A stretch of DNA of 64,000 nt, taken from the NCBI GenBank assembly GCA_036170915.1, contig JAVHQC010000016.1, positions 32,001 to 96,000 of the forward strand, given 5' to 3'. The stretch is from Cyanobacteria bacterium auto_48_18. Lineage in GTDB: Bacteria > Cyanobacteriota > Vampirovibrionia > Obscuribacterales > Obscuribacteraceae. Every line of letters starts with the position of its first letter. Position 1 is the stretch's first letter. This document shows positions 38,006 to 64,000 of this stretch, piece after piece. The translations under genes and the position numbers were made by a program. The notes under the pieces were generated by a model that was not told where the DNA came from, ran no database searches, and saw only the letters and a list, made by a program, of their open reading frames with translations.

Positions 38006-38101
38006 CGGGGATGCGTGGGAATCGAACCCACCCAGGGCAGCGTAAATCTACCCCGCAACGGTTTTGAAGACCGCACACCACACCAGCGATGCTCCATCCC
38101 C
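38006..38101 (-). tRNA. selC: tRNA-Sec (anticodon TCA)
   Basis: Minus strand: GGGGATGG-AG-CATCGC-TGGT-GTGGTG-T-GCGGT-CT-TCA-AA-ACCGT-TGC-GGGGTAG-ATTTACG-CTGCCCT-GG-GTGGG-TTCGATT-CCCAC-GCATCCCC-G. It has a 6-bp D stem with 4-nt loop, a long variable arm, an extended acceptor and a G discriminator. Confidence 0.93.
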
Positions 38102-58364: not shown

Positions 58365-58901
58365 TTATTTGGTTTTTTCTTCGCCCTGCCAAAGCGGGCC
58401 GGCTTTAAATTTCTCTACAGTGTCAAAACCGCTGTGCCAGAGGTCTTCCAGCACGTAAGACTGCGCGTAACCGGCGTTAACTATCTGCGGCAAGCTGGCA
58501 AAGTTAAGTGAAATACGACGGCTAGGGAAAAGATTATTGGTGCAGTAAACTACCACCGTAGCTTTTTTGTCAGGCACGAATTTTTCCAGGCGAGCCTGGC
58601 TGATGTCGGGGCCAAAATTGATGGCGCCCTTGATGTGGCCTTGATTGTACTCATGCTCGCTGCGCAAATCTAAAATTACCAGCTGGGGTTTTCCGTGTAG
58701 CTTTTCCAATTGCGAAAGAGGCATGGTGTGTTCTTTGATATTGATATTGTTGACCGCAGATTTGTATTCGTTGAAAGTTAGAGGGTTAACCTCAGGTTTT
58801 TCGAGTTGACCTGGCTTTGCTTCGGCCGAGCAGGCAGTAGCTGTGCACAAGGCCAGAAACATTGCTGCGACTTTAACTTGGGTTAGCGGAACTTGCTTCA
58901 T
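58365..58901 (-). CDS. Exported single-domain rhodanese-like protein
   Basis: ILDLRS..EY..GHIKGA and VVYC (active-site Cys) motifs; signal-peptide-like N-terminus. Confidence 0.85.
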   Translation of the reverse strand: MKQVPLTQVKVAAMFLALCTATACSAEAKPGQLEKPEVNPLTFNEYKSAVNNINIKEHTMPLSQLEKLHGKPQLVILDLRSEHEYNQGHIKGAINFGPDISQARLEKFVPDKKATVVVYCTNNLFPSRRISLNFASLPQIVNAGYAQSYVLEDLWHSGFDTVEKFKAGPLWQGEEKTK

Positions 58902-58968: not shown

Positions 58969-60048
58969 ATGAAAAATTTGAAAAATTACAGCCGGTACGT
59001 TGCTTTAAGCATTATAGCCCTCGGTGCTGGCCTCTACCTAAACCCGAATACTGCTGCCGCGTCGCCTGGCCTTATAGACGGTCGCGATGTGCGTACAAAC
59101 ATTGATAATTTGACCAGGCAAGTGCTGTGGTTCAGCAATTTGAGAGACGCTCAAGACTCAGCCCGGCAGAAAAACAGGCCTGTGCTCTGGGTGCACATGT
59201 TGGGGCAAATTGAGGGTGCCACGTGAAGTGCCGGCAATAGCCTGAGAGCCGTGTCGCTCTCAACACCTTCAGTAATCAACTACTTAAAAAGCAATTATGT
59301 CTGCGGCACTCGCGATATTACCGGTGAGCCTTATGCCGGTATTTCTGGTCGCCATGAAATTAACGGCAATGCAGTCAACACCACTAATGGTGCGGGTCCT
59401 CACAACATTCAAATGTTTGTGTTGGCAGCTGACGGCACAGTGCTTCATTGCCTGCCAGGTTACTGGGCAAGTCAGGATTTAATCGAAGAATTACAGTTTG
59501 CCCAGCAGCTTAACTCTGTCTGGCAATCGAATACATCTATAGAAAATAAACGTCGTCTTTTCACTTCAATGCAGTTAGCTCACATCAATAAGCATTCACC
59601 AGCTATGGTGGCACGCAGTCAGATGCAAAGCTTTGACCAGAAATACGAAGCGCGCACAAGGCTCGGTACTTCCGATACCATTTTAGATCAGGCTTTAGCG
59701 GCACAATCGCTGGAGATGGGCGGCAAGATGGCTCGCGGAGCTTTCAAAACCACCGATGTGATTATGCATGAACGCATGGCGAAAAGGCCATTTTTGCCCT
59801 ATCAACAATTTGATGTCATGGCTTTTTCCGATTATGGTAAGCCCAAGTACGACAAACATGAAGACTACCGCGACGCCCGGGGCATGGTAGACAAACAAGC
59901 GGCTCGCAACGCCCCTGAGCTGGGTGCAAAAGCGGTGGCAACTAGTTCAGCATCAGGCGGCAAGATCAGACCGGCAATGTATATGGCCAGGCATGGCATC
60001 AGAACATACGGACAGGCCGGTCGCAACTTACGCAATTCGGGCTATTAA
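58969..60048 (+). CDS. Putative exported thioredoxin-fold selenoprotein (SelN-like); in-frame TGA at 59224-59226 read as Sec
   Basis: ORFs 58945-59226 and 59251-60048 are in the same frame with only TGA plus 8 sense codons between them. The joined sequence is W..L..A...[49 protein letters not shown] hairpin follows the TGA and tRNA-Sec is present in the window. Confidence 0.8.
59224..59271 (+). promoter_or_regulatory. Candidate bacterial SECIS element
   Basis: 7-bp stem TGAGAGC(59243-49)/GCTCTCA(59256-62) with loop CGTGTC, starting 16 nt after the TGA. A lower pairing TGAAG/CTTCA is also possible. Confidence 0.6.
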
Positions 60049-60062
60049 GCTTTAGGTCTAAT

Positions 60063-63017
60063 TTAAGCTTTAGAGCGGCGGCAGAACAACAGGCGTCCTT
60101 TTTCCGGATCATCTAACTGCGAGCGCAGCCAGCTGTGTCTTTGCTGGTGGCAGCTGAATAGAATAATTTGATGTTCTTTGGCAATGACGTTAATGAGAAA
60201 ACGCATCATTTTTAAGAAGCGATCATCGTCCGCCTCAGAAAAAGGCTCGTCCATAATAATCGGCAGCGAATTTTTCTGAGAAAGATAACGAGCCACGATC
60301 ATGCGAGCCAGCCAGTGCAGCTGCTCTTTTGTGCCCATAGAAAGCTGGCTCATAATCTGCGCCGAAGAAATTTCTTCAGTTTGATTCTTGCGTTTTGCCA
60401 CCAGACGCAGTTGGTCATCAAAGCGCACTTCTTCGTAATCAAGCCCTAATTTGCTCAGCATTTCTTTGCCAATATTGTTGAGATTGGTAGACCAGTCAAC
60501 ATAATTCTCGCCGCTCAAGCGCTTAAGTGTGTCTCTAGCCATCTCTAAAGCAATTTTGGCGCGCTTCGCCCCCTGCAAACGAAATTCTGTTAAATCTAGT
60601 TCTTCCAGACAGGAGAGATACTGCTCATCGCAGGTGGCTGAGAGCGTGCGCACGCGCATTAAAAGCTCTTCGCGCTCTTCCTTAAGACCTTCAACTTTTT
60701 TGATGTCTTGTGGTGCTTCTTCCCCTTCAGCTTCTTTTTCTTCTTCGCTCAGAGGCGGCATAGATTCGATGCCTGGATATTGCGAACGCAGAGCATCAAG
60801 CTGTTGAATGACGCGTGATTGGTAATCTTCAAGGCTTTTAATCAGTGGTGGCAGTTCGGTAATTGGCGAGCCGCTTTCATGTTCAAGACGATTGAGTTCG
60901 TTTGACAAATTCATCCAGTCAGAATAGGCATTCAATCTCTTGCTGACTTGCTCTAAACCTTTGGCTAGCTCGCCGGGTGAGCTAATATCTAAATTGATGC
61001 CGACTTTGCCCAGCAGGTTAACGAGGGCTTGTTCTGTGTCCTCAATTTCTTCTTGCAGCTGCGAAAGTTTTCTGGTGGAAGTACCAGCGTCTTGAAACTC
61101 TTGTTCCAAAGTCTTGGCCTCTTCCATATAACCTGAAAGACCCTGGCTCAGTTGCTTAGCTGTGGCGGCACTGAGCTCTGCGTCTAATTTACCGGAGCGT
61201 GCCACAAAGACTGAAAGATCGGCCTTATAACGATTGAGAGTGGCCATGCGCTGTTCATACATCTGGTCGAGCAGATCCAGCTCTTTCAATTTTGCTGCCT
61301 GCACTGCATATTGATCAAGACGTGACAAAAGATCGGTTCGTGAAGTAAGGCCAACTTTGCGAGCCAGGGTGTCGAGCTTTAATTCTAAAGCGGCCACTTT
61401 AGTGTGATTAGTCTCGGCATCGGCTGTGATTGCCGCTGTTTCTTTTTCGATGGCAACAAAATCGGCGGCGAACAATCTTTCTGGTTTAAATACGGGAATA
61501 GCCAGGAAGGCCGAACCGATCAGACCGAAAATTCCGAGGATAGACAAAACGGGCGTAATAAATGCCGCTTGCTTGACGGTCACCCACAAAATAAAGGCAG
61601 CCACCAGAACAATTATTGAAATCATACCGAGGAGCATAAAGAGCTTGCGCCGCTTATTAAGCTCTTCTTTGCGCTTGTTTTCAAATTCAGTGTGTTTAGC
61701 GCGTGATTGATGTAATTTTTTTTCTGCTTCTAAAATTTGATCTTGAAAAACTACTATCAATGAATTGTATGAGCGGGCGTTTTCGATTCCTTCCGCTTCC
61801 AGAGATTGCATCGATTGGCGCACAGCTACCAGATCTTGCTCACTTCCGGCATCGGTAAGCTTTTCCAATTCGACTTTGCGTTTTGCAGTCAGGCCTTCCA
61901 GTTCGTTTTCAGCATTTGTCATGCTGCCTGCCAGTGAAGCTACTTGCTGTACTTCATCAATGGTGAAAGTATCAAGACCCTTTGAGCGGCTCAACAAGTC
62001 TGCTTTCTTTTCTTCATACAACATTTGTTGTGGTGAAAGGTCACGCTTGATGCGTTCGATTTCTTCGGCTTTATTGTTGCGGCGCTCCCACAATTCTTCA
62101 ATTGGTCGCTTCAGTTCTGCCGGGAAATCTTCAACACCATCTAAGCCCCCAAGGCGCTCGCTCACTTCTTTGTGACGGGCCGAAATATCGCGCAATTTAG
62201 ACAGGCGGCTTTCAGCGTCGTTGAGCTGGAATTTTAGATTCTGATATTCAGTAGCTTTAAAGCGACTATTATCACCTGAGAGCACGCGGTTAATAATCAT
62301 CAAACGATCGAATGAAGCTGCCACGTCCTGGCGATCTCTTTCGTAAGCTCGAATTTTGTTTAGTAAATCTTGCCGCACAAGCTCAAGGTCGCGCACAAGA
62401 TTGTCGACTTTTATTTTGCGATCGTTAATTGGCACATGCTCTAAAGTGTCGTTTAAGACACGCACTGCTTGAGTGGATGTGCCCGAAGGGCTGGCCGAGT
62501 CAGCTATGCTTTGCACCAGTGTAGCCAGGTCAGCAGCACCGCCGAAGGCGTGCTCGTCTAGTTCGCGCTGGCCCACAAAACAGGTGCTGCGAAAGAGCTC
62601 GCGGCTCATGCCGGTTAGTTTAAGGCCAATTTCGTCTTCACCATTGGGCCCTTTAAACTGAGACGTCACTTCTTGATTGTTGCGATCGCGATCAAAAACC
62701 TGAAAAGTCTTGGCGCTGAAATCGCGCTGAATTGTCAATCGCCGATCTTGCGAGTTGACGTCCATGCGAGCTGAATAGACACCACCTTTTTTCGGCCGTC
62801 TGGCTTCACGCTCGCTCAAATGCGTTGCATCACCTGCAGCCAGAGTCGCAATTTCTTCGCTGCCAAAATCGAAAATTACTGACCAGATGGCTGTCGCCAT
62901 GGTGCTTTTGCCATATTCGTTGGGCTCAACCATGAGGTTGAGTTTATCTTGAGCAAACAGAACGCTCTCACCCTGTATGCCGCCGTACCCGGTTAACTCA
63001 ACGCGTTCAACCCACAT
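60063..63017 (-). CDS. Rad50/SbcC-like (YhaN-like) SMC-type ATPase with internal TM hairpin
   Basis: PNEYGKST Walker A, FVGQ Q-loop, long coiled coil, LSMG signature, IMDEPF Walker B and SCH. Confidence 0.85.
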   Translation of the reverse strand: MWVERVELTGYGGIQGESVLFAQDKLNLMVEPNEYGKSTMATAIWSVIFDFGSEEIATLAAGDATHLSEREARRPKKGGVYSARMDVNSQDRRLTIQRDFSAKTFQVFDRDRNNQEVTSQFKGPNGEDEIGLKLTGMSRELFRSTCFVGQRELDEHAFGGAADLATLVQSIADSASPSGTSTQAVRVLNDTLEHVPINDRKIKVDNLVRDLELVRQDLLNKIRAYERDRQDVAASFDRLMIINRVLSGDNSRFKATEYQNLKFQLNDAESRLSKLRDISARHKEVSERLGGLDGVEDFPAELKRPIEELWERRNNKAEEIERIKRDLSPQQMLYEEKKADLLSRSKGLDTFTIDEVQQVASLAGSMTNAENELEGLTAKRKVELEKLTDAGSEQDLVAVRQSMQSLEAEGIENARSYNSLIVVFQDQILEAEKKLHQSRAKHTEFENKRKEELNKRRKLFMLLGMISIIVLVAAFILWVTVKQAAFITPVLSILGIFGLIGSAFLAIPVFKPERLFAADFVAIEKETAAITADAETNHTKVAALELKLDTLARKVGLTSRTDLLSRLDQYAVQAAKLKELDLLDQMYEQRMATLNRYKADLSVFVARSGKLDAELSAATAKQLSQGLSGYMEEAKTLEQEFQDAGTSTRKLSQLQEEIEDTEQALVNLLGKVGINLDISSPGELAKGLEQVSKRLNAYSDWMNLSNELNRLEHESGSPITELPPLIKSLEDYQSRVIQQLDALRSQYPGIESMPPLSEEEKEAEGEEAPQDIKKVEGLKEEREELLMRVRTLSATCDEQYLSCLEELDLTEFRLQGAKRAKIALEMARDTLKRLSGENYVDWSTNLNNIGKEMLSKLGLDYEEVRFDDQLRLVAKRKNQTEEISSAQIMSQLSMGTKEQLHWLARMIVARYLSQKNSLPIIMDEPFSEADDDRFLKMMRFLINVIAKEHQIILFSCHQQRHSWLRSQLDDPEKGRLLFCRRSKA

Positions 63018-64000
63018 TTCTGACAGTTACCTTTTTAGTTCGCAATGCATCAAGACCATAATAAAGTGCGTCTTCCACTGTTTTTCCCGAAACGTCCGAT
63101 CCCGGTATGCCAGTGAGGCTGTCGCCGCCAAGCTCCTGATTTTTAGAGCGTTCGGCTCTCGTTTTCATCTCCAACATCGCTTCCACATATTTCCATTCGG
63201 TGGTGCGCTGATCAAATCTTTCGGCCAGATAATTTGGCCTGGTGTTGTCCATCACACGCAAACAATAAAAATCTTGGGCTAAGCTGTCGGCAATTTCTTT
63301 GGGGGTGGCACCAGGCTTGTGGCGACCTTCAAGGGAAAGGGCAACAATGTCGGTGTCGCTACGCACACCAGATTCTTCCAGATTTACCAAAATTTCGTCA
63401 CGCATTTCATCATCACCAAGACCTGATACATCGACAGTGACAAACATCATGCGGCGCAAATCAAGTTCTTGCGGAATCAAATTGACGGTAGATTTACCGT
63501 TGCTGTCGACTTCTACCTCACCAAGAATGGCATAGCGTGGGCCCAGTTCGTCAAAGGTACCTCCAGCCAAACAACCGGCATAGGCGCCCAGTAACCGTTC
63601 GCCACCAGCGTCCCCGGTGGTTATCTGGTAGGCCTCTTTAATATTGCCCACAGCAGCATAAGTAAGATTTTGATTGGCCAGTTCTTCTTCTGAAAATGGA
63701 TAAATCAGGGGTTTCTGCACCTGCAAGCGACTGGCGTCGGCGATTACCGACGGATGCGATTCGAGAGTACCAGCAAAAACGCCGATATTAATTGCTGCTT
63801 TGGCCAGCTTGGGCAATTTGCCAGACAAAATGCGTTCAGTGCGGCGGGATGCTTTGGAAAATGCTCGACCGACAAAGGCCACGTCACCACGAGTAGGGTG
63901 AGCTACAGAGGTGAAATGTTCGCTGGTGAAAATATGCACATTGGCCGGCCAGTGCCGGTAGCCTCGAGCGGAGAGCATATCATTGGTATAAAGGCAGCTT
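63007..64000 (-). CDS. Mre11/SbcD-like (YhaO-like) metallophosphoesterase, 5' end outside window
   Basis: WP.NVHIF, YAAVG.I and AY.G...G..FDE.G.R motifs; translationally adjacent to the SMC-like ATPase. Confidence 0.7.
   Translation of the reverse strand, partial: SCLYTNDMLSARGYRHWPANVHIFTSEHFTSVAHPTRGDVAFVGRAFSKASRRTERILSGKLPKLAKAAINIGVFAGTLESHPSVIADASRLQVQKPLIYPFSEEELANQNLTYAAVGNIKEAYQITTGDAGGERLLGAYAGCLAGGTFDELGPRYAILGEVEVDSNGKSTVNLIPQELDLRRMMFVTVDVSGLGDDEMRDEILVNLEESGVRSDTDIVALSLEGRHKPGATPKEIADSLAQDFYCLRVMDNTRPNYLAERFDQRTTEWKYVEAMLEMKTRAERSKNQELGGDSLTGIPGSDVSGKTVEDALYYGLDALRTKKVTVRNVG

Follow-up and report, generated by a model that had tools for sequence, protein, structure and literature searches.

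An in-frame TGA conserved in Obscuribacterales genomes points to an unannotated family of exported thioredoxin-fold selenoproteins

Two open reading frames on the forward strand of the window, that is, the whole 64-kb stretch of DNA that was analysed, lie in the same frame and are parted by a TGA codon. The question is whether they are the remains of a broken gene or a single gene in which the TGA is decoded. The upstream frame starts at GTG 58945 or ATG 58969 and ends with the TGA at 59224-59226, while the downstream frame runs from GTG 59251 to the TAA at 60046-60048, with 24 nucleotides, or eight sense codons, between the TGA and its start. The original prediction, which took the two frames for a hidden selenoprotein, was correct in its coordinates, in the local sequence and in the length of the read-through product. 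When TGA is read as U, 359 residues are obtained before the TAA, with U at position 86, and homologues align along the entire length of the gene, across the TGA. As judged from the sequence, positions 58969..60048 (+) very probably constitute one intact gene for an exported thioredoxin-fold protein, with 359 codons, a single selenocysteine (Sec) codon and the TAA stop. The reading of the UGA at 59224..59226 (+) as selenocysteine, residue 86, is supported by the comparison of homologues and by its alignment with the first Cys of a WCxxC motif. The prediction is borne out by several lines of evidence, namely the conservation of the TGA, homologues with Cys, a hairpin of the SECIS type, and the presence of tRNA-Sec, SelB and SelD.

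The conservation of the TGA was evaluated by a six-frame search of 41 genomes, namely the own genome and its relatives, of which 26 have the gene. Within the order, and without counting the own genome, it occurs in 22 of 24 genomes of family f1 and in all three of family f2, and it was not found by this search in any genome of the other six families. Most of the matching genomes have two to five copies, and almost all matches across the site contain one TGA. Of 30 loci taken from the relatives, L045 is cut short by a contig end; the other 29 cover the site, and all of them share the column of the TGA. Species-representative genomes were also scanned with the peptide pattern T-[TS]-N-G-A-G-P-H-N, which is 54 residues away from the Sec site, and this gave 183 relatives; TGA occupies the column in every one of the best 80. 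Pooling these two overlapping sets of 29 and 80 loci leaves 84 distinct sequences, all with TGA, and the conservation reaches down to approximately 42% protein identity and includes several paralogues per genome; the compared sequences are kin, and these counts, like the p-value given below, overstate their independence. A TGA conserved in this way goes far beyond what chance would produce. The titles of the records are almost all those of Candidatus Obscuribacter, Obscuribacterales or Melainabacteria metagenome-assembled genomes, including Ca. Obscuribacter phosphatis.

The expectation that standard annotation would split this gene and miss it was confirmed by the public protein entries, nearly all of which contain the part after the TGA only. 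A search of a protein collection gave 599 matches, nearly all with 230-300 residues and restricted to this part, and an exhaustive profile search gave 997 matches at E<=0.001. Among the best 150 of these 997, 15 stop precisely at profile position 77, immediately before Sec, and 124 start only from position 82 onwards, which leaves 11 that cross the Sec column. Twelve homologues are full length, with a sense residue at this column. The identity of this residue had been proposed as a check on the prediction and it agrees with it, given that, beside the uniform TGA of the genes, Cys is found in six of the 12 proteins (P0066, P0129, P0167, P0173, P0260, and P0267), of which P0167 and P0173 belong to clusters that include NCBI records named Planctomycetota. 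Four others have Ser (P0128), Ala (P0206 and P0207) or Pro (P0209), which means that some relatives do without a redox residue.

Downstream of the UGA, and within the coding sequence, a hairpin typical of a bacterial SECIS element (bSECIS) was found at 59243..59262 (+). It has a 7-bp stem, (U)GAGAGC paired with GCUCUC(A), closed by the 6-nt loop CGUGUC; the hairpin starts 17 nt after the UGA and its loop 23 nt after it. When folded in isolation it has an energy of -10.7 kcal/mol and a z of -4.26, and none of 200 shuffles was as stable. The criteria for bSECIS elements given in the available text of PMC13188914 are a loop of 3-9 nt, a stem of 4-16 bp, a G in the first two loop positions, a distance of 16-37 nt from the UGA and a minimum free energy <= -7.5 kcal/mol. 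With its 6-nt loop, 7-bp stem, 23-nt spacing and -10.7 kcal/mol, the hairpin of the window falls within these published ranges, as do those of 76 of 81 distinct sequences on all four criteria; the five others depart from them in energy only (-5.7 to -7.0 kcal/mol). In 75 of the 81 it is formed in the minimum-energy fold. In a set of 16 diverse sequences, 99% of the hairpin cells are paired, with one compensatory change from A-U to C-G and two wobble changes. Two variants of the hairpin are GAGGGACGUGUCCCUUUC, found in four loci, and GAGGGCCGUGAGCCUCUC, found in five, the latter with a Ser codon changed from TCG to AGC; both are still able to fold an equivalent hairpin, one in a shifted register and the other with a bulged U.

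The conservation of this region is also seen at the level of the codons. The relative codon entropy is 0.37 for codons +1 to +12 after the TGA (11 columns), versus 0.90 elsewhere (67 columns). Only columns with an amino-acid conservation of 90% or more were included, and the Mann-Whitney p of 1.6e-7 is indicative only, given that the sequences are related; what counts is the difference between columns within one alignment. Ala at +8 is encoded by GCC in 80 of 80 sequences, and Val at +9 by GTG in 84 of 84. This suppression of synonymous change at the hairpin shows selection on the RNA. The arrangement is that of the recoding in E. coli fdhF, with a UGA in frame, a hairpin directly downstream of it in the open reading frame, and a G-U in the apical loop, whereas the sequence of the hairpin is unrelated to that of the E. 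coli element and its stem is short (6-7 bp). No Rfam family was found around the TGA at E<=10. In line with selection on the RNA, positions 59221-59265 are the only ones at which short paralogue fragments accumulate among the aligned contigs. No RNA run was listed as containing the stretch.

The presence of selA, selB and selD in the genome had been suggested as a further check, and selB and selD are present, as is a gene for the tRNA. A tRNA-Sec gene with anticodon TCA is located at 38006..38101 (-), 21 kb upstream of the gene and within the same window; it matches Rfam RF01852 with 75.8 bits (gathering score 47) and is called tRNA-SeC by ARAGORN. SelB and SelD are present in the own genome with 333.5 and 364.5 bits, both above the cut-off. 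SelA was not found with TIGR00474 or PF03841 in this genome, which is 86% complete and consists of 39 contigs. SelA scores above 500 bits in 13 of the 14 genomes of the genus, and it is present in 20 of 29 relatives overall; incompleteness of the genome is likely the reason why it was not found. The usual anchor selenoprotein is formate dehydrogenase, and this too was not found in the 86%-complete genome.

With respect to the protein, its N-terminus has the characteristics of a signal peptide in residues 1-31, at 58969..59061 (+), with a K/R-rich start, a hydrophobic core, and A-A-A followed by S-P-G at the putative cleavage site. A hydropathy scan predicts this segment, and in 24 of 24 aligned members the N-terminus is signal-like, given that the part preceding the domain contains an 11-residue window whose mean Kyte-Doolittle hydropathy exceeds 1.6, which supports the prediction that the protein is exported. 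The thioredoxin-fold domain covers residues 43-186, at 59095..59526 (+), and contains an insertion of approximately 30 residues with an invariant N-G-A-G-P-H-N loop. It is followed by an all-helical C-terminal domain, residues ~168-313 at 59470..59907 (+), for which the structural comparison gave no match. The AlphaFold model, calculated with an alignment of 24 sequences, has a mean pLDDT of 80.2 and a pTM of 0.74, with values of 89-98 around the Sec site and low confidence in the segment of the signal peptide. In this model the fold is continuous across residue 86, which is placed between strand 72-77 and helix 87-96. A profile-profile alignment with 12 Thioredoxin_7 domains from the genomes of relatives (probability 94.1%, E 1.3e-7, 116 columns) agrees with the model that a thioredoxin-like fold spans the TGA, as had been proposed.

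Searches with single family models gave matches below the thresholds only. Pfam gave no domain at E<=1 on the protein of the window and none at the gathering score on any of the 24 members, the best being Thioredoxin_7 (PF13899), with E 0.14 in one member, and Thioredox_DsbH (PF03190), with E 0.023 in two. No NCBIfam model reached its cut-off on any of the 24, and the best match to a selenoprotein family was Trx_VPGUxxT_one (E 0.017, three members). From the evidence of the alignments, the family can be shown to belong to the broad group of Thioredoxin_7/DsbD-gamma/DsbH/AGR/UAS-like thioredoxin folds. Among sequences of 708-2020 residues, a range outside the length of selenoprotein N, no longer or fused relative was found at E<=1, which is weak evidence against fused forms. 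When the family profile was searched against the sequences of solved structures, only a chance match to MarR was obtained (E 0.88).

The profile-profile alignment places U86 on the first Cys of W-C-x-x-C, in agreement with the position that had been assigned to the TGA. The absence of a second Cys, which had also been pointed out, is seen in the sequence U-S-A-G, where G89 falls on the column of the second Cys, and the homologues that have Cys in place of Sec likewise lack it. A basic residue is found at +7 (R93 in the protein of the window) in all 18 aligned rows with Sec or Cys, 17 of them with Arg and one with Lys (P0129). This Arg is also found in two of the three forms with Ala or Pro (P0207 and P0209), indicating that it is no marker of redox-active members. 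Sec and Cys forms both keep the glycine-rich N-G-A-G loop and a D-G-T-V...G-[YF]-W strand-turn, and the helical domain has the conserved motifs R-S-x-M-Q-x-F-D, F-K-T-T-D-x-I-M-H-E-R-M, and Y-G-K-P-x-Y-D-K. Pro144, a candidate for the cis-proline, is not kept in the Cys forms from Planctomycetota.

Another cysteine of the protein, Cys161, is found in 81 of the 84 Sec forms and missing in three. It is missing in five of the six Cys forms, with P0066 as the only one that keeps it. Both Planctomycetota forms are among these five, which means that Cys161 cannot be essential to the family. It may act as the resolving residue in the forms that contain it. The sequence U-S-A-G-N-S resembles the Cys-x-x-Gly loops of rhodaneses and phosphatases. 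This resemblance was considered as a functional signature and dismissed, given that in the Cys forms the Gly at +3 is not kept, and V, F, L, S or G is found there; in the Sec forms this stretch is constrained by the RNA hairpin.

Thioredoxin_7 (PF13899), DsbD-gamma, DsbH and Thioredox_DsbH are exported thiol:disulfide oxidoreductases (PDB 3f9u, 1vrs, 2ju5, and 3ira). The comparison of sequences indicates that the family is distantly related to the Thioredoxin_7/DsbD-gamma/DsbH oxidoreductases and would work like them. It differs from them in having Sec for Cys and Gly89 for the second Cys, and in the addition of the ~30-residue N-G-A-G-P-H-N insertion and of a helical domain of approximately 150 residues. 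The proteins AGR2/AGR3 and ERp18/19 (PDB 3ph9, 9i3u, 1sen, and 2k8v) are eukaryotic, contain Cys and not Sec, and are devoid of the C-terminal helical domain. With the known bacterial thioredoxin-fold selenoproteins, as far as they are described in the available sources, the protein shares its bacterial origin, Sec at the redox position and a SECIS element within the open reading frame, whereas the T-U-S-A-G context without a partner Cys and the architecture are different.

The original prediction had likened the protein to selenoprotein N (SelN, SELENON) of animals. The analogy appears a fair one when both are viewed as selenoproteins with a thioredoxin-like fold and a lone Sec without the CxxC pair, facing an oxidising compartment, which for SelN is the lumen of the endoplasmic reticulum and for the bacterial protein would be the cell envelope. 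According to the available text of PMC8148124, the lone selenol of SelN is proposed to pass electrons to partners. A true homology with the catalytic domain of SELENON, nearer than that with other thioredoxin-like families and with the same way of working, is nonetheless unlikely. The hallmarks of SelN given in the sources consulted are the SCUG motif, or Cys-Sec dyad (PMC12839072, PMC8148124), and a luminal EF-hand as well as anchoring, as a type II protein, in the membrane of the animal endoplasmic reticulum (PMC12839072, PMC8148124, PMC10650576). The dyad is absent from the bacterial family, where Thr precedes the Sec column in 23 of 24 members, with Ala in the Cys form P0066, and no EF-hand was found with Pfam (E<=1 for the protein of the window; E<=10 for the 24 members). 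SelN has Arg at +4 (p.Sec462, p.Arg466 in the numbering of the available sources), whereas a nearly invariant Asn is found here. SelN is described as animal-specific in the available text of PMC2375036, and the nearest named groups that were found for the bacterial protein are Thioredoxin_7, DsbH and DsbD-gamma. The descriptions available of SelN are those of a type II membrane glycoprotein of animals with a eukaryotic SECIS and an EF-hand that senses calcium, and all these features are absent from the bacterial protein, whose gene has the hairpin inside the open reading frame. A search of protein clusters with P0066 retrieved only unnamed Cyanobacteriota clusters (score 0.93) and clusters bearing Thioredoxin_7 (score 0.77), none of them labelled SelN, and no SELENON entry is among the PDB matches listed. 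It is a doubtful proposal that the family is the bacterial counterpart of the SelN catalytic domain, both being single-selenol modules of the Thioredoxin_7/UAS-like type in an oxidising compartment, and that, with its two to five copies per genome in Obscuribacterales, it may be the main reason why this lineage keeps the Sec machinery. If true, it would provide a tractable bacterial model of a human disease protein and place the use of Sec firmly within the phylum Cyanobacteriota.

A different way to obtain one protein from the two frames would be a reassigned code or a suppressor tRNA that places Trp, Gly or Cys at the UGA. The presence of Trp at the column in two of the 12 full-length homologues (P0122 and P0135) speaks in its favour, and non-Cys residues at this position had been named as evidence against a selenoprotein. 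These are the only two with Trp, both being database translations, and P0122 is identical in 320 of 323 positions (99%) to the product of locus L042, whose DNA has TGA there. Given that this near-identical gene reads TGA, the Trp of P0122 is best and most simply explained as a translation made with a table in which TGA encodes Trp. TGA remains an ordinary stop in the own genome, where it ends 538 of the 2081 open reading frames of at least 300 codons, and it also terminates members of the family, namely one paralogue of the gene and four orthologues. The sense residue of the natural homologues is Cys and not Trp or Gly, and a SECIS-type hairpin, tRNA-Sec, SelB and SelD are all present. Together, these observations make read-through by any residue other than Sec highly improbable. 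Least probable of all is a pseudogene or an assembly error, that is, a former Cys gene split by a nonsense codon or two separate genes: standard gene calling does yield two open reading frames and the database entries are almost all downstream-only, but the same TGA persists in the 84 distinct sequences, at low identity and among paralogues of the same genome, both halves are conserved as protein with synonymous change free outside the hairpin, the thioredoxin fold needs the strand encoded before the TGA as well as the helix encoded after it, a second assembler gave an identical sequence of the gene, and a contig of ~92% identity that was obtained in another study spans the gene and keeps the codon, with no difference listed between 59218 and 59279.

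For the preferred reading, decoding as selenocysteine, the following sequence of events can be proposed. SelB carrying Sec-tRNA(Sec) would recognise the hairpin at 59243-59262 and insert selenocysteine at the UGA at 59224-59226, after which translation would continue as far as the TAA at 60046. The product would be secreted by means of its N-terminal signal peptide and would adopt a divergent Thioredoxin_7-like fold followed by the helical domain, with Sec86 at the N-terminus of the first helix, in the place of the attacking Cys of CxxC, and Gly in that of the second Cys. A protein with these features may function as a single-selenol oxidoreductase in the oxidising environment of the cell envelope. 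Its selenolate would attack an oxidised substrate, such as a peroxide, a sulfenate or a disulfide, and form a selenenic acid or a selenenylsulfide, which an external thiol would then resolve; in most Sec forms Cys161 might do so instead. With selenium, the lone redox residue would be protected from irreversible over-oxidation. The chemistry may be the reduction of peroxides or sulfenates, thiol-disulfide exchange in the envelope, or the handling of metals or chalcogens; from the predicted fold and the position of the residue, any one specific reaction is tentative at best.

The sequences thus give good support to a real selenoprotein gene, and the unannotated family to which it belongs is of the same kind as the bacterial thioredoxin-fold selenoproteins. 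The 2026 review PMC13188914 lists 119 prokaryotic selenoprotein families in its Table 1, and none was seen among them, in the available text, that fits this protein; NCBIfam, which models most of these families, gives no match. The main texts of deep-Sep and BSepDB make no mention of cyanobacteria or Melainabacteria, and their supplements might list such genes. A search of the literature gave nothing that links Obscuribacter with selenocysteine, and the publications that name both selenoproteins and Melainabacteria are studies of the gut microbiota. The family would add to the bacterial selenoproteome a large multi-copy group, with the 997 profile matches, the 183 species-representative loci and the 2-5 copies per genome, which standard annotation splits everywhere, leaving hundreds of post-TGA entries that are called hypothetical. 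Its predicted active site is unusual, with a lone Sec without a partner Cys in an exported thioredoxin fold that is joined to a conserved helical domain. The 2022 review PMC9312934, in the text available, counts Cyanobacteria among the few lineages apparently without Sec; in contrast, the present data indicate that selenocysteine is used by the Obscuribacterales, a non-photosynthetic branch of Cyanobacteriota. The SECIS of this lineage is sharply conserved, which makes it usable to find the remaining selenoproteins of the Obscuribacterales.

The helical domain has a local similarity to the selenoneine synthase SenA, which was rejected as homology. The similarity is short, restricted to residues 273-303 and found in eight of the 24 members, with a best E of 6.7e-4 for a model with a cut-off of 420 bits. 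With respect to the gene neighbourhood, there is no conserved operon, and the flanking genes (27 flanking open reading frames in 13 loci) are uninformative on function given that they differ from locus to locus. An exported rhodanese adjoins the gene in the window, and it recurs only in the locus of the closest orthologue, L021.

The genome from which the window derives (G000) carries two paralogues of the selenoprotein gene, one of 350 codons (G000:C22:55372-56289, reverse strand) and another of 453 codons (G000:C22:441504-442340, reverse strand), both with a signal peptide and with a Sec-site motif and hairpin identical to those of the window gene. The terminal stop of the 350-codon paralogue is TGA, which means that this triplet serves as Sec codon and as stop within one gene. 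In the window, a tRNA-Sec gene with anticodon TCA (38006-38101, reverse strand) precedes the selenoprotein gene by 21 kb. In G000, which is 86% complete, no match was obtained for SelA with TIGR00474 or PF03841, nor for the selenocysteine-type formate dehydrogenase alpha (FdhA) with TIGR01553. If FdhA is truly absent, the exported thioredoxin-fold family may rank among the principal users of the Sec-decoding apparatus in this genome.

In f2, the sister family within the Obscuribacterales, small Thioredoxin_7 (PF13899) matches occur at G025:C91:16376-16630, G026:C46:3110-3364, and G027:C291:2195-2449, all within frames of approximately 143-145 residues that contain one in-frame TGA apiece; these may represent a second, separate thioredoxin-like selenoprotein. 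Distant relatives, each likewise with a single in-frame TGA, are located at G020:C30:150487-150849, G022:C222:4954-5361, G017:C116:3511-3987, and G021:C524:5486-5827; these share 25-29% identity with residues ~40-210 of the selenoprotein and may constitute a more divergent Sec-containing branch.

The Obscuribacterales-type gene is also present in MAG records titled as photosynthetic cyanobacteria (Planktothrix, Drouetiella, and Oculatellaceae; loci L073, L095, L102, L103, and L112), Proteobacteria (L084, L098, L104, and L127), and Bryobacterales (L131). These labels look doubtful.

Within the selenoprotein, residues 273-303 (window 59785-59877) show a weak, local similarity to positions 320-350 of the selenoneine synthase SenA profile (NF041186). 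This similarity is seen in 8 of the 24 family members, with a best E-value of 6.7e-4, far under the 420-bit cut-off.

The divergent neighbour of the selenoprotein gene (58365-58901, reverse strand) encodes an exported protein of 178 residues that has a signal-like N-terminus and a rhodanese domain (PF00581, E = 8.5e-14). This pairing is seen again only at the locus of the closest orthologue and is absent from the other loci examined. Downstream, on the opposite strand, lie a 984-residue coiled-coil ATPase (60063-63017, reverse strand) with AAA_27 at its N-terminus (E = 2.7e-6) and, overlapping it, a 323-residue ORF (63007-63978, reverse strand) with no Pfam match; together these may form an SbcC/SbcD-like pair.
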